DNA from: a virus
Taxonomy: Duplodnaviria; Caudoviricetes
DNA: 64,000 bases
Direction: 5' to 3' (one strand)
Virus record (IMG/VR): IMGVR_UViG_3300031992_000021
Span: 32,001 to 96,000 of that record
In this document: positions 1 to 22,329 of the stretch, in pieces
Layout of the letters: every line of letters starts with the position of its first letter
How positions within the stretch are numbered: position 1 is the stretch's first letter
Notes under the pieces: generated by a model
The model's input: the letters and a program-made list of their open reading frames with translations, nothing else
Database searches by the model: none
What the model was told of the DNA's origin: nothing
Made by a program: the position numbers and the translations under genes

Positions 1-818
1 TCTCCGTAGAATACGTCGTCCTTCAGCTTCTGGATATCGGCATCTGACATCCAGTTCGGCTCAACCCACTCGTAGTCCGCGAACCACTTCGCGATCCACT
101 GCCTTAGCCCGGACATCTTGGGCGCGTTGAGGGCCGATGAAAACTCGTCTATCGCATCCTGGACCGGATTCTTTCCGTCAGACCCAACGACAAAGCTGAC
201 GCCCTGCTCCCTCATGCGCCTCTTCACGGCTTTCGCCGCCATCGAGACAAGCCTCTCCTTGGATTTGCCTCCCATGTAGTATCCCAAGCCTCCGTTGCAC
301 GAGTGCTCTGCGACGACATTGACGGCCTCGGGGAATGTGGCGACGCTCCAGATCATTCCGGACTTGTGTTTTCTCACTGTACGGACCGTCACAGGATACT
401 TGGCAAGCCAGTCGACTTTAGGATTTTCCATCGACAGCATTTTCTCGCTTGTTCGAGGTATCGTGTCGTAGGTCCTCAGAGGATTGACATCGTATCCGTC
501 AATGGCGAGCAGCTTCGCGTCGACCTCCTCGCTCAGATCCGAACACTGGTTGCGAAGCCAGTTGCCGAGGATGTCGAACGGATAAACCATGGCTCCGTTG
601 TTGCCTGACCTTACACGTTCGATCGCTCTGTCTATAACGGACTTCATCTCGTCCTTGGAGAGAGACTTCGCAAACTCCTGCAGTTCCCTGATAGTTCCGG
701 GATAGCCATCCCGCAACTCCTTTCCCCTTGCGACTATCTCGTCTGCCGTTCTGGCGGCAAAGGCGCTGATACACATGGCTGACGACACGAGAGCCATTAT
801 GACTACCATCTTTTTCAT
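1..818 (-). CDS. Secreted hypothetical protein (partial, runs off the window start; absent from the ORF track)
   Basis: Manual translation from ATG at 818: MKKMVVIMALVSSAMCISAFAARTADEIVARGKELRDG..., open to position 1. Sec-type signal peptide ending in AFA. AAGGA SD and an extended -10 box at 852-860 lie upstream. Confidence 0.8.
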   Translation of the reverse strand, partial: MKKMVVIMALVSSAMCISAFAARTADEIVARGKELRDGYPGTIRELQEFAKSLSKDEMKSVIDRAIERVRSGNNGAMVYPFDILGNWLRNQCSDLSEEVDAKLLAIDGYDVNPLRTYDTIPRTSEKMLSMENPKVDWLAKYPVTVRTVRKHKSGMIWSVATFPEAVNVVAEHSCNGGLGYYMGGKSKERLVSMAAKAVKRRMREQGVSFVVGSDGKNPVQDAIDEFSSALNAPKMSGLRQWIAKWFADYEWVEPNWMSDADIQKLKDDVFYG

Positions 819-851
819 GATGTTCCTTTCCTTTGATTTTTCTGTCTCACC

Positions 852-860
852 ATTATACCA
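852..860 (-). promoter_or_regulatory. Extended -10 promoter (TGGTATAAT)
   Basis: Perfect TGnTATAAT on the minus strand in the intergenic gap upstream of the CDS starting at 818. Confidence 0.65.
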
Positions 861-865
861 TAAAA

Positions 866-1660
866 TCACTGCACAGCCCAATTCGGGAGTTCAGAGAACC
901 AGCGCACAGGAGCTATCGGGTGCCACAGGGTCTTCGTCGACCCATCCTCGTGCTCTGCATCGTTGTTCATGTTCCTCAGATAGCACCACATGAGGTCCTC
1001 GTTGTCCTCCCTGAGCCAGTCGCCTGGGTGTTTTACAATGCAGGATGAGTCGACGAGCACCACGACGTTCCTGAGCTCATACCCCCAGTCGATCGTGTTC
1101 CCTATCTTGGTATACGCACGGACGTCCCACGAGCTTCCGTATCCCGTTCCAACGTACATCTTCATCTTGTCCCAGTTGTTCCCGTCTTCGGACCCCTTGT
1201 CCGCCACTTCGCTCTGGGAGTAGAACTGGAGTCGGGTCTCCTCCGTGCCGGCGGAGTGCGAGAAGTTGTTCGTGGATGCCTTCAGCTCGAACCCCGCGAA
1301 ACTGGACGACATGGACCTCCAGTAGTTTGAATACCACGAGCTCGCCGTGTGTGCAGTAACGCATCGGTACGGAGAGCCATTGTACATCACGGCGTCTCCT
1401 CTGTAGTAGTACGTGCCGGTAGAGAACTCAGGATATCCCATCGGAGGTTCCCTGTTGACCGGTATGATGAACATGGCTATCCGCCTGACCGGCGCCCTGT
1501 CGTCAACCACCCTGTCTACGTAGTTGCTGACCGCCGAAACCTTGTTCGTCACGAACGTCTCGGTGGCCATCCTCGCCGTTGCCCCGATCGTCTGAAGCGG
1601 AAGCGCCGACATGGCTGAAACTGTAAATGCGCAAAGCGCAGCTGCCTTTGTTTTTTTCAT
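866..1660 (-). CDS. Exported protein with a CBM5/12-like carbohydrate-binding module
   Basis: Basic-hydrophobic N-terminus (MKKTKAAALCAFTVSAMSALP). FSTGTYYYRGDAVMYNGSPYRCVTAHT..W is a CBM5/12-type motif. ATGA overlap with the upstream gene. Confidence 0.65.
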   Translation of the reverse strand: MKKTKAAALCAFTVSAMSALPLQTIGATARMATETFVTNKVSAVSNYVDRVVDDRAPVRRIAMFIIPVNREPPMGYPEFSTGTYYYRGDAVMYNGSPYRCVTAHTASSWYSNYWRSMSSSFAGFELKASTNNFSHSAGTEETRLQFYSQSEVADKGSEDGNNWDKMKMYVGTGYGSSWDVRAYTKIGNTIDWGYELRNVVVLVDSSCIVKHPGDWLREDNEDLMWCYLRNMNNDAEHEDGSTKTLWHPIAPVRWFSELPNWAVQ

Positions 1661-2151
1661 CTTGTCACTCCGTTTTGTTCTACGGCTATGGTCTTTACCC
1701 CGTTGCCGTCCTCAACAGTTATCTTGTGGTACAGTCCGGTAGACTCGTCCTTTGCGTACGCGTCGTCCGAGGACACTCCAGAGATCCCGTTCTGGTCGAC
1801 CGCGATCGTCTTTATACCACCGGAATCCTCTATCGCAAGCTTGTAGAATAGTCCTGTCGAGGCTTCCCTGGCGTAGAGATCTTCAGGTATTCCGCCTCCG
1901 CCTCCTCCGCCGCCATCTCCTTTCATTGAAAGCGCTTCGTCGACCGTCGTTTCGGTGAAATGCGATGGATCCCACGCCCCTGAATGCACGACTGTGCATC
2001 TGTAGAGCGTGTCCCCGCGGTACACAAGGCGCCCTTCTGAATACGCTGCCGATTCGCTGAACGTCGGCGCAAGGGCCGACTTCTCGACCTTCTGCCCGAT
2101 CGCGCTCCGGAGCATTCCGAACGCCGCTATGACTTTCTGGTATAGTGTCAT
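1657..2151 (-). CDS. Small fibre-associated protein: CBM5/12-like module, poly-Gly linker and two copies of the shared C-terminal module
   Basis: FSESAAYSEGRLVYRGDTLYRCTVVHSGAWDPSHF, a G8 linker, then YAREASTGLFYKL...VDQNG and YAKDESTGLYHKI...VEQNG. Confidence 0.7.
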   Translation of the reverse strand: MTLYQKVIAAFGMLRSAIGQKVEKSALAPTFSESAAYSEGRLVYRGDTLYRCTVVHSGAWDPSHFTETTVDEALSMKGDGGGGGGGGIPEDLYAREASTGLFYKLAIEDSGGIKTIAVDQNGISGVSSDDAYAKDESTGLYHKITVEDGNGVKTIAVEQNGVTR

Positions 2152-2167
2152 GGCGCTTCGCCCCCGG

Positions 2168-2689
2168 TCACTCCTCCGCCGCCTTCAGTATGGCCGCAAC
2201 AGTTTCGTCGTCAACGCCAAGCGCATTCTTCGCAAGGCTTACCCATGAATTGAAAAGCTCGTTGTCAGCTGAAAGGTCCTGGGACAGCGAGAACGCCTCC
2301 CATGCGTTAAGTCCGTCGACCTCCTGCGTCTGAAGCCACTCCTTCAGCTGCTGCCACTTGCCTATCTTGGACAGGGCGACGTACAGCTTGAGCTTTGAAT
2401 ATCTTGGAGGCTTGACGAAACCGGTGGCGGAGAACAGCTTGTTCGTGACCGTCCATGACCTGCCGCTCTGGACGTACGTGCAGATCATCACGCCGTTAGT
2501 CACCGTCCTCGACTGGAGCCTGCGCTGCGACGATATCGCCTCAAGCCTCCTCACGGCAGCCTTTCCGATCGCCTTCTCAAGGGAGTTGGTCGATGAAGGC
2601 GATGCCGCAAGAGACGTCACGGCCGAGAATATCGCCAGAAAGGCGGTCGCCGCCACCGATATGAAAGATCTCGCTCTTGGTGTATTCAT
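2168..2689 (-). CDS. Exported hypothetical protein
   Basis: Signal peptide (...AATAFLAIFSAVTSLA-A), GGAG SD, compact helical C-terminal domain. Confidence 0.65.
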   Translation of the reverse strand: MNTPRARSFISVAATAFLAIFSAVTSLAASPSSTNSLEKAIGKAAVRRLEAISSQRRLQSRTVTNGVMICTYVQSGRSWTVTNKLFSATGFVKPPRYSKLKLYVALSKIGKWQQLKEWLQTQEVDGLNAWEAFSLSQDLSADNELFNSWVSLAKNALGVDDETVAAILKAAEE

Positions 2690-2706
2690 GGTATTCTCCT
2701 TTTGTC

Positions 2707-3573
2707 CTAGTTTTCGATGGGTACGAGCCCGAGAAACGCTCCGTTGTCGAACAGGGCGACCACACCGGTCTCGCTGTTTGTCACCGGTCCGGTGAAAGTC
2801 GGATATGTAGCGCCGCCATCCGTTACCGTAAGAAGGTAGCTTCCGAACGCAACACCGTCAGGGCCGCCCCATTTCCCGTGCGGATTGAGGTTGCAAGGTA
2901 TGTTCCTGAGCGCCTCAGGGCGCTTCACGTAGAGCTTGTGGCACGTGTAGTGGACGTCCGCGGAACTCGTCCTGTGCAGGACTATGTCGTATGTGTTCGT
3001 GAAGTGGTCGGTCGTGTTCTTCTTCGTCCAGCTTCCTGCAACGCGGTTTGTCGTGAATCCGGACTCCCATACGTACGGAACCGTCATCGTTGGAGAATTG
3101 GTGAAGCTCTGGCCGAAATAGATGTACAGCACGTCCTCGTTGGAGGCTGAATCGTAGCTGTTTGACGCGACATAGATGTCGAACCTCCTTGACGTAAGGG
3201 GAACCACGGGAAACTGAAGAGTCACGAACCTGCCTGTCTTCGGCACGTTCGAGAGCGAAGCCCTGAGCGACTCCACTCCGTTCGAGAATCCCTGCTGCCA
3301 GGCCTTTGCGACCCTTCCTATGTTCTTCGCCGTCTCCTCCTCCGCGGCCGCGTCGGCAATCGACGCAAGAACTCTGTTCTTGTCCCTCAGCTGCCCGTCT
3401 TCAGTCTCGGTTATGACGTTCTTCTGCCACGAGAAGTTCGTCACCACTCCGGACACCGACTCCGCCACGACAGACCTTTCAGCCCCAAGCCCCGTGCCAA
3501 GTCCCTCGCCAAGCTGCGCAGACGACGCAACTGCAACGAAGGCAGCCATTGATGCGATTGCGAACCTCATCAT
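2707..3573 (-). CDS. Exported hypothetical protein (paralogue of 4403..5179)
   Basis: Signal peptide MMRFAIASMAAFVAVASSA. DGQL...N.VLAS.AD.A motif and C-terminal ALFDNGAFLG. Confidence 0.7.
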   Translation of the reverse strand: MMRFAIASMAAFVAVASSAQLGEGLGTGLGAERSVVAESVSGVVTNFSWQKNVITETEDGQLRDKNRVLASIADAAAEEETAKNIGRVAKAWQQGFSNGVESLRASLSNVPKTGRFVTLQFPVVPLTSRRFDIYVASNSYDSASNEDVLYIYFGQSFTNSPTMTVPYVWESGFTTNRVAGSWTKKNTTDHFTNTYDIVLHRTSSADVHYTCHKLYVKRPEALRNIPCNLNPHGKWGGPDGVAFGSYLLTVTDGGATYPTFTGPVTNSETGVVALFDNGAFLGLVPIEN

Positions 3574-4406
3574 TCAGCCACCTCCACCTGAAGCCTGAGA
3601 CGCCACATCGACCGTCTGTCGACCATGAATCCTGGAATTATCATGACATGCTGACCGGCTTCTGCCTCTACAGTCATGACCGATTCCCAGTGCCCTCCCC
3701 TGAACATCCTCTCAAATATAACCTGTCCAGGACCCGTCAGAGCCTCAGCTTCCACGGTGTAGGTTATCGTGGCCTTGCTTGACGTCATGACGAGCGAGTC
3801 GAATGTGATTCCACCCTCTGTCTCTATGTATACCGGCGGAAGGTCGTCGCCGACATAAATCTGCTTGTGCTCCCAGGAGTTCGTCGGTCCGAACACGTAG
3901 TACACTGTGGTCGTGGCTCCGTTGATCGTCCACCCCGAATCCATCTCTACGCCAGAAGGGAGAGCTGCCGTGTTCGCGAAGTTTGTCCATGCGTTTCTGT
4001 TGTCCTCGCGCCACCATATCTTCTGCGCAAGCTCCGAAGGGGTAAACACGGCGTTCGTGACGGAGAATGCGTAGGCGGCTATGTTCGTGCCGTGTCCGAA
4101 GTCATCTATCAACGTATCCGGCACAAGATTCGTAACCGATCCGCCGTGGGCGTATTCGGCGGCGACAAGGCCAATCTCGGGGTCGTGCCCCGTCTTGGAC
4201 ATGATGTTCTTCGATCCTCCGTACATGACGGCCATGCAGACCGAAAGCGTCACGACGATCTTCCCTACGGCGCCAAGCTCCATGAATCTCCTGTGGATGT
4301 CGGACAGGGTCCCGGAGACCATAGGCCACAGGGCGATCGCCGCGCACATTGCCGAAAGAACGGCGGCCGCACAGACAAGTGCGTACATGGCGATTCCGTC
4401 TATCAT
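3570..4406 (-). CDS. Membrane-anchored protein (two N-terminal hydrophobic helices, then YGGSK) with an extracytoplasmic beta-rich domain
   Basis: Start moved from 4460 to ATG 4406, which overlaps the upstream stop (ATGA). Two hydrophobic segments. TN-rich C-terminal region. Confidence 0.65.
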   Translation of the reverse strand: MIDGIAMYALVCAAAVLSAMCAAIALWPMVSGTLSDIHRRFMELGAVGKIVVTLSVCMAVMYGGSKNIMSKTGHDPEIGLVAAEYAHGGSVTNLVPDTLIDDFGHGTNIAAYAFSVTNAVFTPSELAQKIWWREDNRNAWTNFANTAALPSGVEMDSGWTINGATTTVYYVFGPTNSWEHKQIYVGDDLPPVYIETEGGITFDSLVMTSSKATITYTVEAEALTGPGQVIFERMFRGGHWESVMTVEAEAGQHVMIIPGFMVDRRSMWRLRLQVEVAE

Positions 4407-5179
4407 TCCGCAACCCCCACAAGAAGCCCCTTCCTGAACGTAAGCGTCTTCCCTCCCCACGAAACGACGGTTGACACCCCGTCCTTAACTCCGTTCGGAA
4501 GGTCTATAGTCGCGCCGTCGGCTATCGCGGCGTCGTTCGGTATCTTCATGTATGTGAATCCGGAGTTCGCCCTCGGAAGCCACACGTCAACGTAGTACAG
4601 GTGCGAGTATTCGTTGCCGTCTTTGTCCTCATAGGTTCCGGACTCCGCAACCGGTGCGGACACGAAGTCCTCGGCAAGGAAATCCCATTCGCTCCTCGGA
4701 ACCCCGTCGATAACCTGCGCGTAACCGACAAGCGGCTGTACGGTCTGGATGTCTTCCGTGAAGGCGAACCTCATCCTCCACTTCCTCGATTCAACGCCTT
4801 GGATCGTTCCGTTCTCTCCTGTGTCCTTGATGTCTATGACCATGACCTTCGCCGTGGCTTCGTCGAACACGACGGCCGCGTCGAAGGACGACAGCTCTAC
4901 GGAATAGAACACTATCGGAGTGCCGGCGGCAACGTTCGTCGCCACCGCGGAAAGAAGATCGACAGCCTGGTTGAAGCCGTCCCTTGCCGCGTCCTGCTCA
5001 GCCATGGCGACCTGGTTAGACGCGGCCACCTTGGCAAGATCCGCCTGCGTGGCCACTGCGTTTGTGGAGTTGAGCTTTCCGTCGTCTCCTACCATCAGCT
5101 CACGCTGTGCAGGCGGAAGTTCTGCGAATGCCTCCGAAGCCAGAGCAAGAAACGCGAATACAGCAAGTACGGATTTCAC
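4403..5179 (-). CDS. Exported hypothetical protein (paralogue of 2707..3573)
   Basis: Signal peptide MKSVLAVFAFLALASEAFA. DGKL.STNAVATQADLA motif and C-terminal LTFRKGLLVG. Confidence 0.7.
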   Translation of the reverse strand: MKSVLAVFAFLALASEAFAELPPAQRELMVGDDGKLNSTNAVATQADLAKVAASNQVAMAEQDAARDGFNQAVDLLSAVATNVAAGTPIVFYSVELSSFDAAVVFDEATAKVMVIDIKDTGENGTIQGVESRKWRMRFAFTEDIQTVQPLVGYAQVIDGVPRSEWDFLAEDFVSAPVAESGTYEDKDGNEYSHLYYVDVWLPRANSGFTYMKIPNDAAIADGATIDLPNGVKDGVSTVVSWGGKTLTFRKGLLVGVAE

Positions 5180-5421
5180 TTCGCCCCTCCGTTTCCAAAG
5201 CGATTTGAACGCTTCACTCGGAACGGGGCGTTAGGAGGACCGTTGCGCTCGCTTTCCCTGCGCCTTCTGGCCGCCTCCATCCTGGCCTTGCGCTCTTCGC
5301 GCTCTACCCACAGGATCTGGACGCGGTTCGTGAGCTGAGTCCATGCATCGACAGTTGCGATCGGGACCGCATTTGTTGGATTTGCGGCTGCGAGAGCCAC
5401 CATGAAAAGCAGGTTAGTCAT
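5176..5421 (-). CDS. Small hypothetical protein with a short hydrophobic N-terminus and a basic C-terminus
   Basis: Overlaps both neighbours in the operon. MTNLLFMVALAAA N-terminus. Confidence 0.55.
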   Translation of the reverse strand: MTNLLFMVALAAANPTNAVPIATVDAWTQLTNRVQILWVEREERKARMEAARRRRESERNGPPNAPFRVKRSNRFGNGGAK

Positions 5422-7195
5422 TCTTGTGTTCCTCCAGGTAGTTCAGCACGGAGATGTTCTCCGGCAGAAGCGCGTTTACGTTCGTGACAGGTGTCCAGTA
5501 GAGGTAGCCGGCCTTCATTTCACGCCGATACAGGCACTCTTCCTGGGCGTCCCAGATGTAGCTTGAGGTGACGGACACGACAGATCTGACGGCGTTCGTC
5601 ATCGTATCCGGCGAGAGCGACTCGGATTTCTTGGCATAATCCATCGATATCGCCTCATCGAGGGTGTTCGTACCAATCCACACGTCGTGAAGACCGTTCG
5701 TCACTCCCAAGGTGATGGTCCCGTCGCCATGCGATCTCGTCTCGGGTCCGTTTACCGTGTTGAAACCTGCCGATATCACGACTGCACGGCTGTTCGTGTT
5801 CCACGCATACGTTCCGATCGATACGGAGTCTGTGACATTGGATGCGACATGTCCGCCAAGTGCGTATGTGCGGGTTCCAAATGCCTGCGATCCATAAATG
5901 CCGAAGATGCTCGTCGGACGCCGCCCCATGCCGAGCGCGACGGAACCCGGCCCTGCGTAGCTGTTGTATCCGATGGCCAATCCGTTCTCTTCGGCTTCGG
6001 CAAGCGTTCCGATGGCCGTTCCAAGATACGCCTTTGCCTTTGCTCCAGATCCTATGGCGATCGTGTTCGTCGCCTGCGCTTCCGCAAACGTTCCGATGCC
6101 TATCGAATTGAGATCCATTGCCTTCGCAGGGCCAAGTGCGAGAGCCTGAGGTCCTGTAGCCTCGGCGAAAGCGCCGAATGCGCTTGCATAGTTGTTGGAA
6201 GAGACGGCCTTGTATCCGACGGCAGACCCCCATGAGAAGAACGCCTGCGAGAACAGGCCGCCCGCGAACGCCTCGCTTGCAAGGGAGAGGTTGTTGAATC
6301 CGAGCGCTACCGCGTAGTCGGCCTTTGCCTCGGAAGTTCCGAACGCCATTGCGAAATCTCCGTTAGCTATGGCATATGGGCCTACAGCCATGGCATGTTC
6401 GCCTTCAACGGTGCTGTCATGTCCTACAAGAATGATTCCGTCGCTAGACTCGCTCCAGGTATTGTCTCTGCCTATTATGATATTGGAATTTGTCTGCCAC
6501 TCGTCGAAGTCTTCGATCAGGAGAAGCTTTGACAGATCAGGCTTGTCTGTAAGGTCGTAATACGCGCCAGATGTAGCCACTGCTGCGAACGACGGCTTAG
6601 ATCCTATCTCGGTCCACGTGTAGCTTGGCTTGGTCTGCGCCTTCGCCCACGGGTAGATCGTTGGATCGGATTCCGTGAACGAAGTGAGCCACGGAGGGTT
6701 GTATATCGCAGAAGGAGGTATTGCGTTCGTTGGGTATGGGAGCTTGTCCTGCTTCTTAGCAAGATGAGTGTATGCACCACCTGTCGTGAATTTAGTTGTT
6801 CCGCCCGATACAGGCGTAGCGCTGTCTCCGGTATTCGCAACGTTGCCAAGATCCACGTCAGACTTCCCGATCGTCACGGAGCCGGTCTTGCCGTTTACGC
6901 TTGTCACCGGAGCCGCAGGGACTCCGCTTATCGACGAGTATGGTATTGCGTTCGTCGGATACGGAAGTTTGTCCTGCTTTGCGCCAACCTTCTCGTCAGT
7001 CTCATCCTTGGTGTAGGTGTTATCCTCGATTGATTCTATTTTTCTCAGATTAGACGAGACCTCGTCCATTATCGAGTTGCTGACCGAAGTCACCTTCCGG
7101 TCGACATATTCCCTGGAGGCGGTGACGTTCACCGCTCCGTACGATTCGATTGCCGCGAACGCCAGAATCACAGCCGACATTCTGCAGAACCTCAT
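5414..7195 (-). CDS. Tail-fibre-like adhesin with a signal peptide and YadA-head-like repeats
   Basis: Signal peptide MRFCRMSAVILAFAAIESYG. Phage fibre motifs VTSVNGKTG.V...DVDLGNV.NT and ESDPT..WAK..KPSYT..EIG..FAAVATSG.Y.DL.DKP. Many ~14-aa A.A.G..A.A repeats. No autotransporter anchor. Confidence 0.75.
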   Translation of the reverse strand: MRFCRMSAVILAFAAIESYGAVNVTASREYVDRKVTSVSNSIMDEVSSNLRKIESIEDNTYTKDETDEKVGAKQDKLPYPTNAIPYSSISGVPAAPVTSVNGKTGSVTIGKSDVDLGNVANTGDSATPVSGGTTKFTTGGAYTHLAKKQDKLPYPTNAIPPSAIYNPPWLTSFTESDPTIYPWAKAQTKPSYTWTEIGSKPSFAAVATSGAYYDLTDKPDLSKLLLIEDFDEWQTNSNIIIGRDNTWSESSDGIILVGHDSTVEGEHAMAVGPYAIANGDFAMAFGTSEAKADYAVALGFNNLSLASEAFAGGLFSQAFFSWGSAVGYKAVSSNNYASAFGAFAEATGPQALALGPAKAMDLNSIGIGTFAEAQATNTIAIGSGAKAKAYLGTAIGTLAEAEENGLAIGYNSYAGPGSVALGMGRRPTSIFGIYGSQAFGTRTYALGGHVASNVTDSVSIGTYAWNTNSRAVVISAGFNTVNGPETRSHGDGTITLGVTNGLHDVWIGTNTLDEAISMDYAKKSESLSPDTMTNAVRSVVSVTSSYIWDAQEECLYRREMKAGYLYWTPVTNVNALLPENISVLNYLEEHKND

Positions 7196-8715
7196 TTCTC
7201 CACTCCTTCCTGATCAACTCCGATGTTTACCTCGCCAGTCTCCTCGTCGGTGACGGCAAGAATCCTGTAGAACTTGCCGTCTCCCTCGTTCGGGACGAAC
7301 ACTCCGGGAACGAACGGGACGACTCCGCCGTCGGCGAGTATCGCGTCGAGCGCCCTCTCGATCTCCATTACCTTCACATACGCAGGATCTGACACGCCGA
7401 AAACCGTGAACACTCGGCCTTCGGTTGCTGATTCTACAAACCTGTACGTGACGACCTGACCTGCCGGCGCGTAAAGGGTCACGTCTCCGCCGGCGTAGTC
7501 CTTGAGGCTCGCCGACGCAAGTACGACAGGAACATCTTCCTCGGAGGATATGTTCAGGACGACATAGAAGTCCCTCGCGTTTCCTGTTCCGACGGAAGCC
7601 GGAAGTCCGAGCCTGATCGTCTTGTTTTCCGAGATGGTAGCCGTGACGACGTTTACGGTCCTGTCCTTCAGGTTGAAGAGCATCACAGTGCTGTCGCCAG
7701 ATGCCGAAGAGAGGATGTTCTCGACCCTGTACCTGATGTTCGGCTTGTTCTTGATGAACGCAGGATCCTCCGGATCCTCCTCGTTCCAGTCCGGATGGGC
7801 CTGAATCGAAGCCGCTGCGACTATCTCGTCCAGGTCGGCCTCTCTCCAGTCTTCGGCATTCCACTCTGCTCCCTGTGAGACGGCAGAGGTGCAGATGTAC
7901 AACTTGCCGCCGCGGGAACACTTGTCGCCTGCGGCATATCCGCTTTCCGACGTGTCGTACGCCTTCAGGAGCGAACTTCCTGGAAGGTATCCTGAGTCGT
8001 TCTCGAACTCGCTCAGCTTGGTCGGAAGGTCGTCCTCCGTGATGAATCCGGAGTCGTTGGTAAGCTGGCTCGTCTTGGACGGAAGCGATCCGGCAAGCTG
8101 CGCTATCCTCGTGGCGATCGAAAGCTCCACCGAAGCGTTTGTAGAGAAGATCGCAGCCGGTCCTCTTCCTGCAGTTGTGCATATCTGTAGGACGACGTCT
8201 CCAGTCTCATCGTCCCTCTTCCTGGCAAGCATCCCGACCGTGTAGTACTTGCTTCCGCTGTATGCAGGGGCGAGGTTCAGGAGCGACGCAAGGCCCTCGT
8301 TCGAGTAGGCAGACAGCATCGCGAGGATGACGTTTGCGCCAGCTGCTGTGAGGACCAGATCCCACTTTGACGGATCGAACGAAGACGAAGACGTGTGGGC
8401 GGCCTTGCACCGGTAGCCGGCTCCACCATGCTTGCAGTAGCTTCCTACTGAATATGACGTAGAGGCAGACCACGCGGACGAGTTGAACGCAGCGATCGCG
8501 TAAACTCCGTTCACGGCGTCCCAGATCGATCCGGATGCCTCCTCGACGGCAGACTCTACATCCTCCTGCGTTATGAAATCGGATGGCTTCTTGCCGCTGT
8601 CGAGAAGTGCTCCGTTAGTGCCGAACAAGGCGATATTTCCAGAGACGGCGCCAGAGGGCACTGTTGCGGCACCCTCTACGTCGCTCAAATACGCTATGTT
8701 CTCCTTCTGGGCCAT
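7192..8715 (-). CDS. Tail fibre protein with 2-3 CBM5/12-like modules
   Basis: GNIALF...G.LLDSGKK..DF, PSKTSQLTNDSGF/PTKLSEFENDSGY and DWNE.DP.DPAFIKNKP fibre motifs. CBM-like W/Y..GY.C repeats. Shared C-terminal module. Confidence 0.75.
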   Translation of the reverse strand: MAQKENIAYLSDVEGAATVPSGAVSGNIALFGTNGALLDSGKKPSDFITQEDVESAVEEASGSIWDAVNGVYAIAAFNSSAWSASTSYSVGSYCKHGGAGYRCKAAHTSSSSFDPSKWDLVLTAAGANVILAMLSAYSNEGLASLLNLAPAYSGSKYYTVGMLARKRDDETGDVVLQICTTAGRGPAAIFSTNASVELSIATRIAQLAGSLPSKTSQLTNDSGFITEDDLPTKLSEFENDSGYLPGSSLLKAYDTSESGYAAGDKCSRGGKLYICTSAVSQGAEWNAEDWREADLDEIVAAASIQAHPDWNEEDPEDPAFIKNKPNIRYRVENILSSASGDSTVMLFNLKDRTVNVVTATISENKTIRLGLPASVGTGNARDFYVVLNISSEEDVPVVLASASLKDYAGGDVTLYAPAGQVVTYRFVESATEGRVFTVFGVSDPAYVKVMEIERALDAILADGGVVPFVPGVFVPNEGDGKFYRILAVTDEETGEVNIGVDQEGVEK

Positions 8716-8743
8716 TTAATTCCTCTTGAAAGTTCTTACCTTA

Positions 8744-8752
8744 ATTATATCA
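8744..8752 (-). promoter_or_regulatory. Extended -10 promoter (TGATATAAT) of the fibre operon
   Basis: Perfect TGnTATAAT in the intergenic gap upstream of 8715. Confidence 0.65.
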
Positions 8753-8790
8753 AAATGACCGGATCGGTTCGGGGACCGACGGCATGGTTT

Positions 8791-9390
8791 CTAAAGAAGG
8801 CCTTCCTGCTGAATCGCAAGGTCTACCACTCCAGTCTTCTTGTCCGTCACGGCCACAATGCGGTGCCTGAGCCCGGTCTCCGAGTTTCTCGCGTACGGAT
8901 CGTGCGAGTTCTTAATGTCCGCCGGATTCTCCTCTCCGGCCGGCGTGAACTTCTCGGACGTTCCGTCGCGATAGGGTATGGAGTGCTGATCAGACGTAGG
9001 CATGTACTCGACAAGGAAGTTTCCGGACAGCTGCGTGTCGTATGAATACCTCATCCTGTCGCTTACGCGAAGGCTGAACATGTACGATCCGCGGCGAAGG
9101 GCCTTAGTCACCTCCCTTGGAATCTTCACATGGACTAGTCCTGCGTGGTGGTCGTCAGGGTACACTCCAGACATCCACTCCCCGGTCCATATGGGAGGCG
9201 AGAACTGGTTTTCAGAGAGGACGAACTCCACATGGCTGTTCTTTGGCGAAGCCGGACCGCAGTCTGCTGCGACAAGCCTCGCGTCGACAATCCACGTGTC
9301 TCCCGACACCACCTTGAGTACAGGCATCCTGTCCTCGCTTCGGAGAGGATTGACACCTGGCGGAACGGGCTTCATTCCCTTGACGAACAT
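8791..9390 (-). CDS. Baseplate/fibre adaptor protein (BppU-N-like) with the shared C-terminal module
   Basis: Start moved to ATG 9390 (AAGGAG SD). V.SGDT...G.V.V.IP...T..L..G.Y.F.L pattern. C-terminal YARNSETGLRHRI...IQQEG. Confidence 0.55.
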   Translation of the reverse strand: MFVKGMKPVPPGVNPLRSEDRMPVLKVVSGDTWIVDARLVAADCGPASPKNSHVEFVLSENQFSPPIWTGEWMSGVYPDDHHAGLVHVKIPREVTKALRRGSYMFSLRVSDRMRYSYDTQLSGNFLVEYMPTSDQHSIPYRDGTSEKFTPAGEENPADIKNSHDPYARNSETGLRHRIVAVTDKKTGVVDLAIQQEGLL

Positions 9391-9557
9391 CTCTCGGTCT
9401 CCTTCTTGGTCTTGAAAAGGAAGAACTTGCAGCTTTCGGCAATTCTTCCTGCGCATATCACCTGTGCGGTGACGGGGCAATACCTGCGACTGAAGTCATA
9501 ATCGGATATCCTTCCGCAGTTTCTGCATATCCTTGGCGGCTGTTTTTCATTCTGCAT
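9372..9557 (-). CDS. Small Cys-rich (putative Zn-binding) protein
   Basis: CxxC plus further Cys residues. AAGGA SD. Fills the gap between 9570 and 9390. Confidence 0.45.
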   Translation of the reverse strand: MQNEKQPPRICRNCGRISDYDFSRRYCPVTAQVICAGRIAESCKFFLFKTKKETERCSSRE

Positions 9558-9569
9558 CTAAAATCCTTT

Positions 9570-10184
9570 CTACGATGCTGACGAGCTCGACGAAGAGCTA
9601 GACGAAGAGCCCGACAGGTTCCTTATGCGGTCCAGGAGCACGCGAAGCGTACCCTTTACATCCTCAAGCGTATCCCCGTCCTGCACCGAGAGATCCGCAG
9701 CAAGAGCCGCCACGTCGGATTTCTTGACAAGCGACATTATTCCTCCGAGCGCGGCATCTATCATTTCGAGCTTGCCGACTACGGACTGGTCTAGCGATAT
9801 CTGTATGTACCTGCGCTCCTCGCCTGACGAGCTGTCGGTTACGTACACTTCATCGACAGAGACCTCGCCTTGGGTACCTCTAAGCGAGTTCAGCAAGTCT
9901 GCAGACCTGGACGCCGCTATTTCGGCGATCGTCTTTCCGCCAACCTTGAGCTCCCCGTCCACGTTCACGGTGTCGGCCTTAAGGTTGATGGCCTTGCCTC
10001 TACCGCCTCCCTTTGAGACTGTGAGCGTATCCCCTCCGTTCCCTCCGTAGTCGAGAACGGGGTTTTTGTCCGTTGACAGGATCCGCTTGACGAACTTCTT
10101 GTAGCGTCCGCCCTCGCGGACGTTGCCTGCCACGTCTATGAGGGCTCCTGTTGCGGAATCGACGACCAGTACAACTCTTGCCAT
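9570..10184 (-). CDS. Putative structural protein with a C-terminal poly-Ser tail
   Basis: AAGGAG SD. Directly downstream of the portal. Ends SGSSSSSSSSSSAS. Confidence 0.7.
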   Translation of the reverse strand: MARVVLVVDSATGALIDVAGNVREGGRYKKFVKRILSTDKNPVLDYGGNGGDTLTVSKGGGRGKAINLKADTVNVDGELKVGGKTIAEIAASRSADLLNSLRGTQGEVSVDEVYVTDSSSGEERRYIQISLDQSVVGKLEMIDAALGGIMSLVKKSDVAALAADLSVQDGDTLEDVKGTLRVLLDRIRNLSGSSSSSSSSSSAS

Positions 10185-10199
10185 GGCTGCTTGGACTCC

Positions 10200-12008
10200 T
10201 TACATTTGACCCTTCATCTGCTCGAGCATCATGGCTCCGCCCTGGCTTCTCGCCTGCGAACGGATGTCGTTCATGATTCCCATGACCTGGTCGTGCAGCG
10301 TCGGGTTGGACTGCTTGATCTTGATCAGCATTCCGCGGCGCTGCGAATCCGGCATCGCGAGGAGCTGCTGGGCGTATGCCTCGGCCTGAGCCCTCACGTC
10401 TCCAGGCGTTGCGCCTACGCTGCCTCCAGGAACCCCTGCTGCGTCGGCATCCTCGTCCTGCGGGCCGCCGTTGAGCTGCTGGGCCTGCTGGGCCGCCATG
10501 GCACGCTGCTGGATGTTCTGTATCTGCTGCTGCTCCGTGACGACCTTCTTCTGCTCGTCCATGTAGTCGAGGTCCGCGACCGTCCTGTAGGCCGTGCCCT
10601 TCGAGATGTCGCCTGCAGCGGCGGCCTGAAGCATGAGAGCCTTGCGCTCGATGTCGTCGGCGAGGGTTGTGGTCTGAAGGCTTCCGGTGATGTCGTCCCA
10701 GTGCAGGTGTCGTGCGATCTTGCCGAGGGACCAGTCAACGACGTCGTTGAAACCGTCTACCATGAACTGGTACTGCTTCTCGAACACGCGAATAGCGACC
10801 GGGGCAGTCTGCATCGTCAGCTTGCCGGTGTACATGTCCTCCGGATATCCGATCGCGTTGATGAGGTCTGTCATCGCCTGCTGGAGATTCTCCTTGGGGG
10901 CAAGCTGCTTTCCTTCCCCACCGAGCATCTGGTAGTTGATCGGGTAGGGTGCAATCTGGACGTCTGTGATGTTCTTTCGCTTTCGCTGGACCATCGCCTC
11001 CATCGCCGCCACGAACCCCCTCATCGACGCCATGGTGAGCGCGTCCTGTCCGTCAACGTTGTTCTGCGGGCTTGGCGATATCACGCGGAACGGGGTTATG
11101 AAATCCATCGCGATCGCCTCGTCGTACCTTCGCATGAGCTGGACATAGTATGCGAGCTTTAGGTACGGCAGAAGAGGAGGCATTCCCCATCCGTACATCT
11201 CGATCCCGGCGAGGGCGGGCACTTTTATGTGAAGGATGCTGTCGTCCTTGAACTTGAAGAGCGGAGTGCCAAGCCCCATCCTCGTGCAGCATGCCTCGAT
11301 GAAGTCCCACGGGGCTTCGTCGACATAGAACCGGTCGACGATCTTTCCAGACGTGATGTGGGATACGAGCTTGTCTTCGTCGAGGCGGTAGTAGTATTCG
11401 GTCTTTCCGGAAACGGGATGCACCCTGAGCTCGAAGCGCTTGGGGTTCCACCTGCGGATGCAGATGCGCGACTGGTCCGGCGAAGGGTAGTCGAACCGGT
11501 TGAACGTGACCTTTTCGCCGCATCTGTAGCATTTGCCGGAGAAGGTCATCGTTCTGGGATCGAACCTGTAGTCTATCTTCTTCGCCATGTACCTCGTTCC
11601 GCATTTCGGGCACGTGAGCACGCGCTCGAACGGAAGGTAGACGCTCACAAACGAGTTCCCGTACACGAGGAGGTCGTTTCCGATCTCACCCAGGCGGTCG
11701 AGAAGATGCAGCTGCCGGCGTATGAACTTCTCGTACTTCTCCTTGTTGGCGCCGGACGCGCCTGTGATGCCTATGCTCGTCAGAAAGTACCTCACCACGC
11801 GGTTCGTCACGGACGCGAACGGAGGAGTCGTCGTCATCATGTACTCGCTGATGGTGAAAGCGTCGTATATGTTAGTCGGGAGAAGCGAGCCGAGCACGTC
11901 GTCGAAGATGTCGGGGAGGTTCTGGGCGTTCTCCCTCGATATCCCGGCCGCTCCGGTCGTCCCACCGAACACGCGTGCGAGCCCGTAGTTCTGCGTGAAT
12001 CCGGTCAT
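10200..12008 (-). CDS. Portal protein with a Zn-ribbon insertion
   Basis: 602 aa. IGNDLLVYGNSF, ILHIK.P...YGWGMP portal-like motifs. CPKC...CYRC insert. Q/A-rich C-terminus. Confidence 0.75.
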   Translation of the reverse strand: MTGFTQNYGLARVFGGTTGAAGISRENAQNLPDIFDDVLGSLLPTNIYDAFTISEYMMTTTPPFASVTNRVVRYFLTSIGITGASGANKEKYEKFIRRQLHLLDRLGEIGNDLLVYGNSFVSVYLPFERVLTCPKCGTRYMAKKIDYRFDPRTMTFSGKCYRCGEKVTFNRFDYPSPDQSRICIRRWNPKRFELRVHPVSGKTEYYYRLDEDKLVSHITSGKIVDRFYVDEAPWDFIEACCTRMGLGTPLFKFKDDSILHIKVPALAGIEMYGWGMPPLLPYLKLAYYVQLMRRYDEAIAMDFITPFRVISPSPQNNVDGQDALTMASMRGFVAAMEAMVQRKRKNITDVQIAPYPINYQMLGGEGKQLAPKENLQQAMTDLINAIGYPEDMYTGKLTMQTAPVAIRVFEKQYQFMVDGFNDVVDWSLGKIARHLHWDDITGSLQTTTLADDIERKALMLQAAAAGDISKGTAYRTVADLDYMDEQKKVVTEQQQIQNIQQRAMAAQQAQQLNGGPQDEDADAAGVPGGSVGATPGDVRAQAEAYAQQLLAMPDSQRRGMLIKIKQSNPTLHDQVMGIMNDIRSQARSQGGAMMLEQMKGQM

Positions 12009-17159: not shown

Positions 17160-19049
17160 TTAGTACGTGAAGTGTTCAGATTTGTTCTTCGAGAGGGGCT
17201 GTCCCCAGTCGCCGAACTCGACGCCCTTTGCGATGCCGGGGTATGGTTCGGTAGAGTGGAGATGCGACTTCGCTCCGCGGGCTACGTCCTCCTGAAGCCT
17301 GCTCTTGAGGTATGTCGTTCCGAGACGCGCCATCCAGTCCGGCTTCTCGGCGTTCGAGTCCTCGATTCGCTCCATGAACGGCGTCACGTCGGGCTGCGTG
17401 TCGTTCACCATCATGCGGTCGACCTTGAACTTCTTCATGGTCTTGATGACCGAAGGCGTGATGCGCGTGCCGATCGTGTAATGCAGGACCGGCTGCTCAA
17501 GGTATTTTCCGATGGAAGCTACAGTAGGCGCAACAATTGCCGAGTTGCTCCTCGGCTTGAACCCGTTGGACCAGCGCGTGTAGGTGACGACATCGCCAGG
17601 AAGCCCTTCGCCGGCTTCGTCCTCGTTGTTGAGCCGCACGGTATTCATGACCGTCCTGGCAAGCACCTCGGCGTTTCTGCGGTTCGCCGCCATGCCAGAG
17701 TCTCGGATCGCCTGCGTGAAGCGGTTTGCCCAGTAGCGCCGAGCCTCGCCGATTCCCTTGTACTTCACGAGCTCCGAGGGGTCGATGACGCCGTCTGAAA
17801 TCTGGTCGCCGGCCTCAAGCTCATCCCCAACCTTGACTTCGAGTTCGTAGCCAGGCGCGACGTAGTGGCGCTTCTCCTCGCCCTTCTGGTCGGTCACGAA
17901 AATGTAGGTTCCTCCCTGAGGGGCGTCTTCAATCTTGGACACCGTGCCGTCTACCGACGAAATCGTTGCGCGATCGGGAAATACCTTCGGCACCTTGGCA
18001 AGCGATGTGAACATGTTGAAGCCCTGATAAGTGCCTTTTCCGGTGGTTTTCTTTCCTGAATGTTTGACATTCAGTGCCCCTTGGGTTATTCTTTCGGCAA
18101 ATGCGGACGCTGCGTTAGTGCCCAGATTGTACCCAATCGGCGGGAATCCGCCGGTTTCGCGGATGCCTGCGCACTTTGAGCATACACCATCCTTGCAGCC
18201 ACACGTGACAGGCGATCTGACGACGATCTCGTCGTGCCTCTTGTCCTTGCGGAGGTCGGAAAGTACGTTTTTGGTGATGACCGTGCCGGCTTCGTATCCG
18301 CCGGCCGGCCTTGCGAGTACGGCTCCGATGTTGTCATCGTCGTCAACCTTGACCGGAAGGCCTCCATCGGTTTCGCAGTCGTCCTCCGTTACGACCTGAG
18401 CGATCGCAGATGCGCTGAGGAGCTTTCCAAACGCGCCGCCCTTTGCGGTAGCCGTCTTGGTCGATACGACGCCCGTTCTGGCGCCGAAGCTGCCGGCCCA
18501 GTATTCTGCCGGCGACAGACCCTCGGCGAACGAGTGGCGTATAAACATCGGAACCATCTTGCCTGACGGGTCGGAATACGTGCCTGGCGTGGAGATGAAC
18601 GCCGCGAGCTGGGTTTTGTTTCCCCTAGCCTTTGAGGCCACCTGGAGGGCGAGCTGGTTCTTGCGTGCGAGTTCGGAGTTGTACGTCTCCTCCATGATTC
18701 GGCTGTTGGCCTTCTCATAGAGTTTCTCGACCATCTCGGTCTTCTGCGCATCTGTAAGGTTCTTGTCGTTACGTATCTGGGCCTCTGCGATATCGAGGGC
18801 CTGAAGAATGGGACGCTTGTCGTACGATGGGCGGAGGTCGGAGAGGCGGATCGTGGTGCCGGTATCGTAGGCCGCGGCGTTCCCGATGTCCATGAGCCGC
18901 TTCGTGACGCCGGCGTAGGAATCCGGGTCTTCGCGGGCTATGGCTTCGAGAACCTCCTCGATGCCCTTCGAGTCCATCACCCTCCCGTAGTCGCGGAAGC
19001 GAGGCGGGAGGGCGTCGTTTACTAGCACCTGTCCGATCGTCGTGAGCAT
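17160..19049 (-). CDS. rpoC: DNA-directed RNA polymerase beta' subunit, C-terminal half (phage-encoded, split)
   Basis: TTIG, SKARGN..QL, SF.EGLS..EY...GAR.G..T..TA (bridge helix), VVTEDDC.T, VRSP.TC...GVC..C (Zn site), AA...ER.TQ..L..KH (trigger loop). Lacks NADFDGD. Confidence 0.92.
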   Translation of the reverse strand: MLTTIGQVLVNDALPPRFRDYGRVMDSKGIEEVLEAIAREDPDSYAGVTKRLMDIGNAAAYDTGTTIRLSDLRPSYDKRPILQALDIAEAQIRNDKNLTDAQKTEMVEKLYEKANSRIMEETYNSELARKNQLALQVASKARGNKTQLAAFISTPGTYSDPSGKMVPMFIRHSFAEGLSPAEYWAGSFGARTGVVSTKTATAKGGAFGKLLSASAIAQVVTEDDCETDGGLPVKVDDDDNIGAVLARPAGGYEAGTVITKNVLSDLRKDKRHDEIVVRSPVTCGCKDGVCSKCAGIRETGGFPPIGYNLGTNAASAFAERITQGALNVKHSGKKTTGKGTYQGFNMFTSLAKVPKVFPDRATISSVDGTVSKIEDAPQGGTYIFVTDQKGEEKRHYVAPGYELEVKVGDELEAGDQISDGVIDPSELVKYKGIGEARRYWANRFTQAIRDSGMAANRRNAEVLARTVMNTVRLNNEDEAGEGLPGDVVTYTRWSNGFKPRSNSAIVAPTVASIGKYLEQPVLHYTIGTRITPSVIKTMKKFKVDRMMVNDTQPDVTPFMERIEDSNAEKPDWMARLGTTYLKSRLQEDVARGAKSHLHSTEPYPGIAKGVEFGDWGQPLSKNKSEHFTY

Positions 19050-19059
19050 GCGAACTGCC

Positions 19060-19638
19060 TTATCGGGTAAGCCCCATGTCGCCTAGAGCCTCGACAACTG
19101 CCGCCTTGATGTCGGCAGAACCAGGTGCGGCAGCCTGAGCAGGTGCGGCAGCCTCCGGAGCCACGCCGGGGCCGAGCATCTTCGAGACGCCGGCAAGCTT
19201 CTTGATGAGATCGATGAGCTGGCCGATCGTGATCGTGATGGTAGGCTCGGTAGCCCCGCCTGCACCGGCCGCGGCGGCATCTGGAGCAGGGGCGGCCGCA
19301 GGGGCGCCAATCATCCCGGCAGTTGCCGGATCGACACCCATCGGAGCACCTCCGGCCATTGCCGCGAGCATGGCAGGATCCATTCCGGCCATTGCCGGAT
19401 CCACTGGAGCTCCGCCTGCGGCAGGATCTCCAGCAGGCGGCATTCCGCCGGCCATAGCAGGGTCTACAGGTGCGCCTCCGGCAGCCTGGTCGGCAGGTGC
19501 GCCTCCTGCGGCAGGGTCGCCGGCGGGCGCCCCTCCAGGCATCTGCACAAAAGACTGCTTAAGCGCCTCTGCGCGTTTAACGAGGTCCTTCTTGGCCTCT
19601 TCCAGCTGACTCCAGTCAAACTTTTCAGACTCTGCCAT
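19060..19638 (-). CDS. Pro/Ala/Gly-rich low-complexity protein (putative head cargo)
   Basis: GDPAAGGAP(V/A)D repeats. LVKRA near the N-terminus. AAGGAG SD. Confidence 0.65.
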   Translation of the reverse strand: MAESEKFDWSQLEEAKKDLVKRAEALKQSFVQMPGGAPAGDPAAGGAPADQAAGGAPVDPAMAGGMPPAGDPAAGGAPVDPAMAGMDPAMLAAMAGGAPMGVDPATAGMIGAPAAAPAPDAAAAGAGGATEPTITITIGQLIDLIKKLAGVSKMLGPGVAPEAAAPAQAAAPGSADIKAAVVEALGDMGLTR

Positions 19639-20587
19639 CTTTTTCTCCTTTGGTTTTGATCTGTTTGATCAATCTTTGCATTCCTCTTGCTATTGTATCA
19701 AAAAAACTGCCAGAGGGCATCCCTGCGTACGCCGGAAGACCGACAGTAGGGTCGTGATTCCGCCTTCTGCCGCATATTGCCCCGTATCCGGTATCTGAAT
19801 CCCATCCTGGAGATCCGACATCTCTCGATATCGTGCGAAGTGCGGCCATTACAGACTTCATGCTTGAATCAGGCCTGTCAAAACGTCCGTATTCGTCTTT
19901 TCGATCGATCTTGTCGGCAAGCAGCAATGCCGCCAGACCGGTTACGATGGCGGCAGAGAACGATGTCCCTTTCACCTCCTTGACCTTACCGGAAACACCT
20001 ATAACCGGAAGATCAACGCCAGGAGCCACGAAATCAACCTCGCCGACGCTCGAGAAAGACGTCTTCAGTCCGTCTTCTCTTGAAGATCCGACGCTGATAG
20101 TTGTCGGAAGGGCTGCAGGCCAGTTTACCGGCCCTGAATCGTTTCCTGCGGCGCATATGACAGTCTTTCCTGCGTCGAATGCCGCCTTGCAGGCAATTTC
20201 GAGCTCATACGGACATTTTTCCGTGCGAAGGAATCCAAGCGACAGGTTGATGATGTCGACGTCTTCCTCGATCGCCCTGTATATTCCGCGTGAAACAGAT
20301 TTTACACTTCCGCATCCTTTCGAGTCGAGAACTTTGATGAATACAGGGATCACATACTCGCAAAGTCCTACTATCCCTCCTCCTCCCAATAGGATGCTGG
20401 CTATCTCGGTGGCATGTCCGAACTCGTCAGGATTGTCACGGTATTCATCTGCAAGGCATTCGTTCCATCCTCCGCGAAGAACGCCTGGCCGAGGCACTCC
20501 AGAGTCAAGAACGGCGATTCTTATGCCATCTCCGAAATGCGACGACGCCGAGAGGCGACTCACACCCATGAAGTTGCCGTAATTCAC
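19625..20587 (-). CDS. Subtilisin-like serine protease (S8 family)
   Basis: Intact catalytic motifs IAVLDSG, GHAT, INLSLG, AAGN, GTSF. No signal peptide or long propeptide. Confidence 0.9.
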   Translation of the reverse strand: MNYGNFMGVSRLSASSHFGDGIRIAVLDSGVPRPGVLRGGWNECLADEYRDNPDEFGHATEIASILLGGGGIVGLCEYVIPVFIKVLDSKGCGSVKSVSRGIYRAIEEDVDIINLSLGFLRTEKCPYELEIACKAAFDAGKTVICAAGNDSGPVNWPAALPTTISVGSSREDGLKTSFSSVGEVDFVAPGVDLPVIGVSGKVKEVKGTSFSAAIVTGLAALLLADKIDRKDEYGRFDRPDSSMKSVMAALRTISRDVGSPGWDSDTGYGAICGRRRNHDPTVGLPAYAGMPSGSFFDTIARGMQRLIKQIKTKGEKDGRV

Positions 20588-22299: not shown

Positions 22300-22329
22300 A
22301 TTATATCATTGTAAACGCCTTGTGCGCAA
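22300..22329 (-). promoter_or_regulatory. Promoter TTGCGC-N18-TATAAT with TG extension
   Basis: Upstream of 22252, overlapping the end of the glycosyltransferase gene. Confidence 0.6.

Follow-up and report, generated by a model that had tools for sequence, protein, structure and literature searches.

Gene layout at the start of the window

The stretch of DNA analysed in this study (the window) comprises 64,000 nucleotides (nt) of a tailed phage and corresponds to bases 32001-96000 of the IMG/VR record IMGVR_UViG_3300031992_000021. The source record measures 162,950 bp at an estimated completeness of 92%, and nearly all window genes lie on the minus strand. The element in question is a block of 13 consecutive minus-strand genes that runs from window position 7195 to genome position 29307, i.e. 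to 2,693 bases before the window start, and in which 11 or 12 genes encode Sec-type signal peptides or membrane anchors. The block is preceded by a fibre gene without a signal peptide (507 amino acids, aa), which heads the coupled gene run, and most starts within the block overlap the preceding stop. An earlier note on this DNA had described that part of the block which falls inside the window. Calling of open reading frames (ORFs) confirmed its gene positions, and ORF calling on the whole genome revealed that the leader-bearing block is not only real but bigger than described, as it continues beyond the window start. Two more paralogues of the product of <1..818 are encoded there together with a signal-bearing protein of 256 aa (L006:15307-18818); the three paralogues, of which the product of <1..818 has 305 aa, are 33-38% identical to each other.

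The host of the phage is probably a rumen or gut bacterium. The gene content of the record includes a split RNA-polymerase subunit, a subtilase, baseplate-like proteins and many fibre-like proteins, and a megablast search of window positions 1-12000 against GenBank phages returned no match. L003, a contig of 189 kb, is syntenic across the whole block, with a portal protein 94% identical to that of the window phage. The features of the block and its surroundings are given below in window coordinates; signal peptides and export are predictions throughout.

8744..8752, minus strand: extended -10-like motif TGATATAAT, 28 nt upstream of the 507-aa fibre gene
7192..8715, minus strand: 507-aa fibre without signal peptide; two CBM5/12-like motifs and a C-terminal motif of about 30 aa; L003 orthologue 79% identical
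5414..7195, minus strand: 593-aa exported fibre; signal peptide (residues 1-20), phage-fibre shaft motifs, YadA-like head (about residues 244-484), conserved C-terminal domain
5417..5605, minus strand: C-terminal domain of the exported fibre (residues 531-593), common to three fibre classes
5176..5421, minus strand: 81-aa protein of doubtful export; weakly hydrophobic N-terminus, Arg-rich C-terminus
4403..5179, minus strand: 258-aa exported protein; signal peptide, long helix, beta-rich C-terminal half
3570..4406, minus strand: 278-aa inner-membrane protein; two transmembrane (TM) helices and a basic loop, YGGSK-type motif, periplasmic beta domain, FN3-like C-terminal domain
2707..3573, minus strand: 288-aa exported protein; signal peptide, long helix, beta-rich domain, Cys pair C211/C227
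2168..2689, minus strand: 173-aa exported protein, final gene of the conserved cassette; signal peptide; orthologues in contigs L002, L003, L007 and L013
1657..2151, minus strand: 164-aa protein, signal peptide not credible; CBM5/12-like motif; C-terminal motif of the 507-, 229- and 1004-aa proteins in duplicate
866..1660, minus strand: 264-aa fibre-like exported protein; signal peptide, fibre shaft motif immediately after it, CBM5/12
852..860, minus strand: second extended -10-like copy TGGTATAAT, ahead of the block of <1..818 paralogues
1..818, minus strand: 305-aa exported protein, first 272 residues in the window; first of three fast-evolving paralogues

Two of the junctions illustrate the tight packing of the genes. 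The start of the 593-aa gene overlaps the stop of the 507-aa gene by 4 nt and has a Shine-Dalgarno (SD) sequence upstream, and the 264-aa gene, whose leader is also present in the L003 orthologue, likewise has a 4-nt overlap of its start with the upstream stop.

Export signals within the genome and in homologues

All signal calls are rule-based. A leader was called when the n-region had a non-negative net charge, when it was followed by 8-16 uncharged residues with a mean Kyte-Doolittle value of >=1.7, and when positions -3 and -1 were small residues. Applied to all 137 minus-strand ORFs of the 162,950-bp genome, the rule flags 23, namely 13/13 of the consecutive block genes as against 10/124 of the others. 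The call for 1657..2151 depends on an 8-residue stretch and was discounted; the hypergeometric probability of finding at least 12 of 13 is 2.9e-10. Of the calls elsewhere in the genome, those that are credible concern three lipoproteins, a few membrane proteins and one exported protein encoded next to the lysozyme gene.

Clear signal peptides are found at the N-termini of 5414..7195, 4403..5179, 2707..3573, 2168..2689, 866..1660 and <1..818, and in the product of 3570..4406 a basic loop connects two TM helices. The leaders or anchors that the earlier note had assigned to the genes at 5414, 4403, 3570, 2707, 2168 and <1..818 are thereby all recovered, the anchor of 3570 being a pair of TM helices. 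Two further leaders had been called probable. That of 866 is clear, and that of 5176..5421 has become doubtful: it lacks a positive n-region, and one orthologue has just 9 hydrophobic residues at this place. An SD-like sequence stands ahead of every signal-encoding start. Signal-less isoforms made from internal starts were considered and rejected, for no SD-backed internal start would skip a signal. A lipobox occurs in none of the cassette proteins of the window (173-593 aa).

Whether homologues keep these leaders is decisive for their interpretation as export signals, and the check, which the earlier note had proposed, was run. Among 5.8 billion proteins searched, the 258-aa family has 31 relatives and the 288-aa family 23, all from metagenomes. 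The rule is positive for 31/31 homologues of the 258-aa protein and for 23/23 of the 288-aa protein, so that all homologues found retain the leader. In both families the leaders vary freely in sequence and length, and conservation sets in exactly behind the predicted AxA site. Drift of the leader in front of a fixed mature start is the pattern expected of functional leaders that are cleaved. Every orthologue of the block in L003 keeps its leader as well, and the 173-aa orthologues of L002, L003, L007 and L013 all begin with signal peptides, each different in sequence. At identities of only 25-30%, the 258-like and 288-like proteins of L014, L015 and L016 still begin with leaders, and the protein encoded between the two still has a pair of TM helices. 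The 288-aa family also has a conserved pair of cysteines, C211 and C227, as would be expected of a protein residing outside the cytoplasm. Altogether the full n-h-c layout with small residues at -3 and -1 is found in more than 70 sequences from at least five unrelated families. The export step proposed in the earlier note is thus well supported by conservation of the predicted leaders, and we consider it very probable that the products of the block are exported.

A conserved cassette in the tail-fibre slot

The six-gene core of the block has a fixed order: exported fibre, small basic protein, 258-aa protein, 278-aa protein with its two TM helices, 288-aa protein and 173-aa protein. This order recurs in nine independent contexts, at identities down to 25-30%, and the contexts covered are the window phage, L003/L004, L002, L005, L007, L012/L013, two contigs of the NCBI metagenome-assembled genome GCA_016648615.1, L014, L015 and L016. 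The base composition of the carriers differs widely: the window phage and L003/L004 have a guanine-cytosine (GC) content of 57-58%, and L002, an IMG/VR contig of 77.6 kb with lysis-like genes after the cassette, has 67%. In L012/L013, a 96-kb contig, the cassette opens a rightward block, with the upstream genes pointing away from it; after the cassette come a lipoprotein gene, a papain-like peptidase gene and further large genes. The cassette takes the tail-fibre slot, between tail genes and lysis genes. Judged by this distribution of related sequences, the six-gene core is a mobile unit that passes between unrelated phages.

Scans of IMG/VR found one other contig only that carries the cassette, and tblastn searches with the 288- and 278-aa proteins against 50,697 GenBank phage records gave no match. 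An orthologue of the 81-aa protein, 60-70 aa long, is present in L003, L013 and the contigs of GCA_016648615.1. Beyond the cassette proper, the paralogues of the 305-aa type evolve fast: their L003 orthologues are only 35-44% identical, compared with the 94% of the portal. In L007 (a RUG10619 contig of 12,086 bp) the cassette ends a series of phage-like genes and adjoins, on the opposite strand, a gene for a glucuronyl esterase of 1,024 aa (CE15); it probably marks the edge of a prophage in an unclassified rumen bacterium of 6.1 Mb that has two exosortase genes. A fragment of the cassette is present in G005, a genome related to RUG10619.

The exported fibre and its conserved C-terminus

The earlier note had described the 593-aa protein as a combination of a leader, a fibre stem and YadA-head-like repeats, and searches of Pfam, PDB and PHROG bear this out. 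YadA_head repeats are recognised by Pfam (PF05658, expect value (E) 2.6e-15) and in PDB entry 1p9h (E 1.4e-5), and PHROG tail-fibre, tail and minor-tail families match residues 70-212. PHROG tail-fibre families also match the exported fibre of L015. The statement that the protein lacks an autotransporter anchor holds too: Pfam and NCBIfam scans detect no YadA-type beta-barrel anchor in it, and the whole-protein scores are far below the family cut-offs. A trimeric autotransporter (type Vc) was accordingly rejected as an identity for this protein, since there is no C-terminal anchor and the last 63 residues form a different domain.

This C-terminal domain (search query: residues 525-593) was found in 19 proteins, with 70-100% identity over the domain, which fall into three classes with unrelated bodies; remote versions occur in L014 and L015. 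A leader is kept in 15 of the 19. Class 1 has YadA heads and class 2 another body, each beginning with different signal peptides. Class 3 (P0068-P0070, P0072; L013:10001-12649) has an N-terminal domain of 245 aa, and its sole strongly hydrophobic stretch, of 12 residues, is internal (around residue 252) and lies right before the shaft. The N-terminal domain of class 3 weakly resembles the product of a separate 157-aa gene upstream of the exported fibre of L015 (E 0.04). Tentatively, class 3 looks like a gene fusion by which a cleavable leader was turned into an internal signal or anchor.

What the three classes share is confined to a leader-like segment directly before the fibre body and, in sequence, to the C-terminal 63 residues. 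Fibres of all classes are encoded upstream of the cassette, and their C-terminal domain always accompanies the 258/278/288/173 genes. Ordinary fibres are conserved at the other end, in the N-terminal attachment domain. Judged from the sequences, the present layout corresponds either to a fibre tip that moves together with its partners or to an adhesin whose conserved dock is C-terminal, and the joint inheritance would fit docking of the domain to a complex encoded by the cassette.

Partner proteins of the cassette

No family of Pfam, NCBIfam or PHROG covers the 258-, 278-, 288- or 173-aa proteins, and an enzyme domain was detected in none of the cassette proteins by family and profile scans. 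The 288-aa and 258-aa families have a similar N-terminal architecture (hhalign 93.8%). Profile searches of both families against PDB yielded no credible match, and the same is true of phmmer searches of PDB with a 305-aa paralogue and the 256-aa protein. The 278-aa family is larger, with 95 cluster representatives at E<=1e-3 in 1.84 billion proteins. Its short members (about 240-310 aa) mostly have two hydrophobic helices and an FN3-like C-terminal domain, and a near-invariant YGG[SA]K-type motif ends the second helix; the FN3 consensus is matched with E 0.003. In the ESM Atlas all TM-scores for the 278-aa protein are <0.45, and the 305-aa paralogue found no match.

Promoter-like motif and neighbouring genes

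The earlier note had placed a promoter at 8744-8752. The enrichment of the motif stands, and its function as a promoter is putative. With at most one mismatch, the extended -10-like motif has 14 matches in the window as against 3.6 expected, a number that was reached in 0/100 shuffles, and the matches lie mostly close upstream of minus-strand genes. Sites of the form TG[AG]TATAAT are found on the minus strand upstream of late genes at 852-860, 8744-8752, 22300-22308, 27167-27175, 46436-46444, 49989-49997 and 57711-57719. The same motif also stands ahead of the fibre-cassette operon in L013, an unrelated phage with 65% GC. A scan for terminators gave nothing above chance.

Past the 256-aa gene, the block is followed by a sigma-70-family gene, a gene for a protein of 2,998 aa and then the lysis region. 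The sigma-70-family protein has 533 aa and comprises regions 1.2, 2, 3 and 4 (L006:13636-15237, minus strand, genome 27636-29237; L003 orthologue 81% identical). Its gene stands between the exported-protein block and the 2,998-aa ORF, which has no family match.

An exosortase/archaeosortase signature was found about 14.5 kb before the window start in a protein of 116 aa with four TM segments (L006:3195-3545, minus strand, genome 17195-17545). It matches TIGR04178 with E 1e-13 (above the cut-off) and Pfam Exosortase_EpsH with E 2.9e-15, and it aligns to a full-length exosortase of RUG10619 with the Cys, Arg and His positions kept. The gene adjoins that of an exported Cys-rich protein of 206 aa and the phage lysozyme gene. 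A substrate of the PEP-CTERM type was found nowhere in the phage genome, and the possibility that the block's exported proteins are such substrates of a phage mini-exosortase was rejected because they have no C-terminal hydrophobic segment. The 116-aa protein may have its targets among the proteins of the host, or it may function as a holin.

Further along the window, the long minus-strand run that contains the virion genes includes an RNA polymerase beta'-like fragment (Rpb1 domain 5; 17160-19049, minus strand), a subtilase S8 gene (19625-20587, minus strand) and a gene whose product has a Stealth CR2-like region (22306-24465, minus strand). Four fibre or baseplate proteins without signals (1657-2151, 7192-8715, 8791-9480 and 32252-35266, all minus strand) have in common a C-terminal motif of about 30-50 aa (BLAST E 2e-6 to 7e-4).

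Proposed mechanism

We propose that the cassette encodes a Sec-exported fibre kit that matures in the periplasm on a membrane-anchored platform and is handed to the virions at lysis, and we put the probability of this reading at roughly 0.4. The fibre chains would pass through the inner membrane in the unfolded state and form trimers in the periplasm, where the conserved C-terminal domain of 63 residues would engage the co-inherited 258-, 288- and 173-aa proteins. The 278-aa protein would sit in the inner membrane with its FN3-like domain outside and hold or organise the assembly. Such a kit would come into use only once holin lesions and lysis merge the compartments, and its most likely use would be to join finished particles as accessory host-recognition fibres. 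Export would also give features taken over from surface proteins of bacteria (the YadA head, the CBM5/12 and FN3 domains and the disulfide pair) their usual folding compartment.

The timing follows from two considerations. At 600-900 residues the fibres could not work inside a periplasm that is still intact, and neither an autotransporter anchor nor a match to a secretin or usher family was found among the scanned proteins in and around the block; both points suggest that the kit is used at lysis. For the same reason, a location of the fibres on the cell surface is without support, as no outer-membrane translocator was found. After lysis the fibres would end up on particles or on membrane debris, and because only the former brings an obvious benefit, we favour the virion route. 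Support for a link to the virion also comes from the position of the cassette between tail and lysis genes, from the promoter-like motif, which precedes virion genes as well, from the coupling of the run to a normal fibre gene and from the matches of the exported fibres to tail-fibre families. In the cultured Cellulophaga phage phi10:1, leader-bearing late proteins encoded at the same position are recorded as structural, which adds to this support.

Several observations weigh against this proposal. The C-terminal motif of the four signal-less fibre and baseplate proteins is found in none of the exported proteins, so the exported set bypasses that candidate docking route. A recognisable N-terminal virion-attachment domain is also lacking in the exported fibres, in which the shaft follows straight after the leader; only class 3 has its N-terminal domain of 245 aa, and the internal hydrophobic segment of this class is equally compatible with a membrane-anchored and with an exported product. 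The 278-aa protein, having two TM helices, cannot be part of the virion of a tailed phage. To our knowledge, no mechanism has been described by which periplasmic fibres find particles at lysis. Structure prediction was of no help: models built with AlphaFold2 on the family alignments have a predicted local distance difference test (pLDDT) score of 52 for the 258-aa and 49 for the 288-aa protein and are unusable. The cultured Cellulophaga phage phi10:1, whose leader-bearing late proteins are compared below, can count as an analogue only, as its proteins have no sequence similarity to the cassette (tblastn with the 288- and 278-aa proteins) and membrane debris can contaminate preparations of virions. 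Cleavage, location and presence on particles of the exported proteins are themselves predictions.

Alternative explanations

The main rival is an envelope complex that is anchored by the 278-aa protein, acts late and never joins the particle. It might possibly mask receptors, against superinfecting phages and against the loss of progeny on the cell or its debris, or remodel the surface. Exported proteins encoded beside receptor-binding genes are an established phage theme, with T5 Llp as an example (PMC9586334). A membrane anchor is included in the cassette, the fibre tip is inherited together with the exported genes, just as a receptor-specific blocker would show, and the exported proteins lack the C-terminal motif seen in the signal-less fibres. 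Evolution is faster in the cassette than in the core genes, and much faster in the paralogues (35-44% identity vs 94% for the portal). Also, the L005 genes just upstream of the cassette have no Pfam match, so that no structural gene can be recognised there. Against this, the known blockers are single small lipoproteins; some 10 kb of genes and adhesin-headed fibres of 600-900 residues, which are too long for an intact periplasm, would be excessive for masking, and the window's cassette proteins lack a lipobox. The genes are expressed late, together with those of the virion, and are coupled to a fibre gene, whereas exclusion usually has to act early in infection, and free or debris-bound fibres with the specificity of the virion would compete with the progeny for hosts. 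We regard an envelope complex as less likely than the virion route, although it is the main rival.

A role in exit from the cell, through a complex that spans the periplasm or attacks the envelope and breaches the outer membrane, capsule or slime in the manner of spanins or secreted depolymerases, would account for the long helices of the 258- and 288-aa proteins and for the position of the cassette in smaller relatives, directly upstream of genes for a C-terminally anchored protein, a lipoprotein of 36 aa and a papain-like peptidase. Lipoprotein genes lie within or beside the cassette in L005, L015 and L016, and the likely hosts encode exosortases, which are associated with exopolysaccharide production. 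In the window phage, however, the lysozyme gene is about 17 kb away, behind the 2,998-aa gene; no cassette protein has an enzyme domain, and the matches of the fibres are to adhesin and tail-fibre families rather than to lyases or hydrolases, which makes exit machinery improbable. More improbable still is the view that the N-termini are not export signals at all but buried anchoring helices or membrane-insertion segments of virion proteins assembled in the cytoplasm. One fibre class does have its hydrophobic segment internally, after the 245-aa domain, the N-terminus of the 81-aa protein is not a canonical signal, and the calls come from a rule rather than from a predictor trained on real signals. 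A structural helix would, however, keep its sequence, and it is the leaders that diverge here while the residue after the predicted cut is conserved. The same view would have to explain the full n-h-c layout in so many sequences of at least five unrelated families (more than 70), as well as the two-TM protein and the conserved Cys pairs that accompany the leaders.

Implications

Textbook assembly of tailed phages is wholly cytoplasmic, and full-text literature searches gave no account of Sec-exported tail-fibre modules in tailed phages. If the periplasmic fibre kit exists, it would constitute a second, extracytoplasmic assembly line for tailed virions, and fibres with secretion signals on particles would reveal an unrecognised assembly step. 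Virion domains that are disulfide-bonded, derived from surface proteins or modified in the periplasm would then be allowed, which would change host-range prediction and engineering. A broader reading would be that certain tailed phages as a group make some of their host-recognition apparatus in the periplasm: fibres and tip partners would be exported by Sec, put together on a two-TM inner-membrane platform with YGGSK motif and FN3-like domain, and loaded onto particles built in the cytoplasm only when holin lesions join the compartments. We hold this reading to be less likely than not. Should the fibres not be on particles, about 10 kb of late genes would be spent on an envelope complex tied to a fibre tip. 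Either way, the cassette defines new protein families without a Pfam or PDB match, among which the 258-, 278- and 288-aa proteins form a triad of fixed order whose two-TM member carries the YGGSK motif and the FN3-like domain. The predicted cleavage sites, the C-terminal domain of the fibre and the cultured Cellulophaga analogue offer objects for tests.

Comparison with known systems

Among phages, the late genes gp091-gp094 of Cellulophaga phage phi10:1 (KC821618) resemble the cassette in several ways. They are consecutive, lie between tail and holin-like genes, and each begins with a canonical signal peptide; the GenBank record lists the products as 'structural protein' on the basis of tandem mass spectrometry (MS/MS) proteomics. 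By eye, a two-TM-like partner is absent among the translated gp087-gp099, and the host belongs to a different phylum, the Bacteroidota. The adjacent pectate lyase of phi10:1 is also leader-bearing, and the annotation of the record (gp091-gp095) is silent on leaders.

The receptor-blocking lipoproteins T5 Llp and Cor are likewise exported, phage-encoded and located beside a receptor-binding gene (PMC9586334). They differ in being single small lipoproteins, whereas the present system has no lipobox, proteins of 173-593 aa, long fibres and a two-TM protein. Two-component spanins, which pair a type II membrane protein that has a coiled coil in the periplasm with an outer-membrane lipoprotein, differ as well: the 278-aa protein has two TM helices with beta and FN3-like domains, and the window's cassette includes no lipoprotein.

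With the trimeric autotransporters YadA, Ata and EmaA the 593-aa protein shares an N-terminal Sec signal, head repeats of the YadA type, partial matches to NCBIfam Ata/YadA models and the combination of a variable passenger with a conserved C-terminus. Unlike them it lacks the beta-barrel and ends instead in an unrelated domain of 63 residues, with no aromatic residue at the terminus; the head is preceded by phage-fibre shaft motifs, and the gene belongs to a phage late operon.

In T2 (gp37/gp38), as in T-even phages alike, and in Mu and P2 (fibre/Tfa), the distal end of the fibre is exchanged as a unit with the downstream genes, which encode an adhesin or a chaperone. The cassette follows the same principle, as fibre tip and downstream genes are inherited together and the rest of the fibre differs. 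The modules of T2, Mu and P2 are cytoplasmic and have no signal peptides, whereas the partners here number four to five and all are predicted to be exported or membrane-anchored.

A precedent for the export of such fibres comes from the mosaic adhesive trimer (MAT) fibres of Bdellovibrio, trimers that resemble phage tail fibres, carry signal peptides and are active outside the cytoplasm (PMC10769870). MATs are cellular proteins of the predator and have a conserved domain of about 130 aa after the signal and variable C-terminal tips (PMC10769870). In the cassette fibres, by contrast, the conserved part is C-terminal, and the fibres are encoded by phage late genes together with a dedicated partner cassette. 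The MAT fibres nevertheless demonstrate that phage-like fibres can be Sec substrates.

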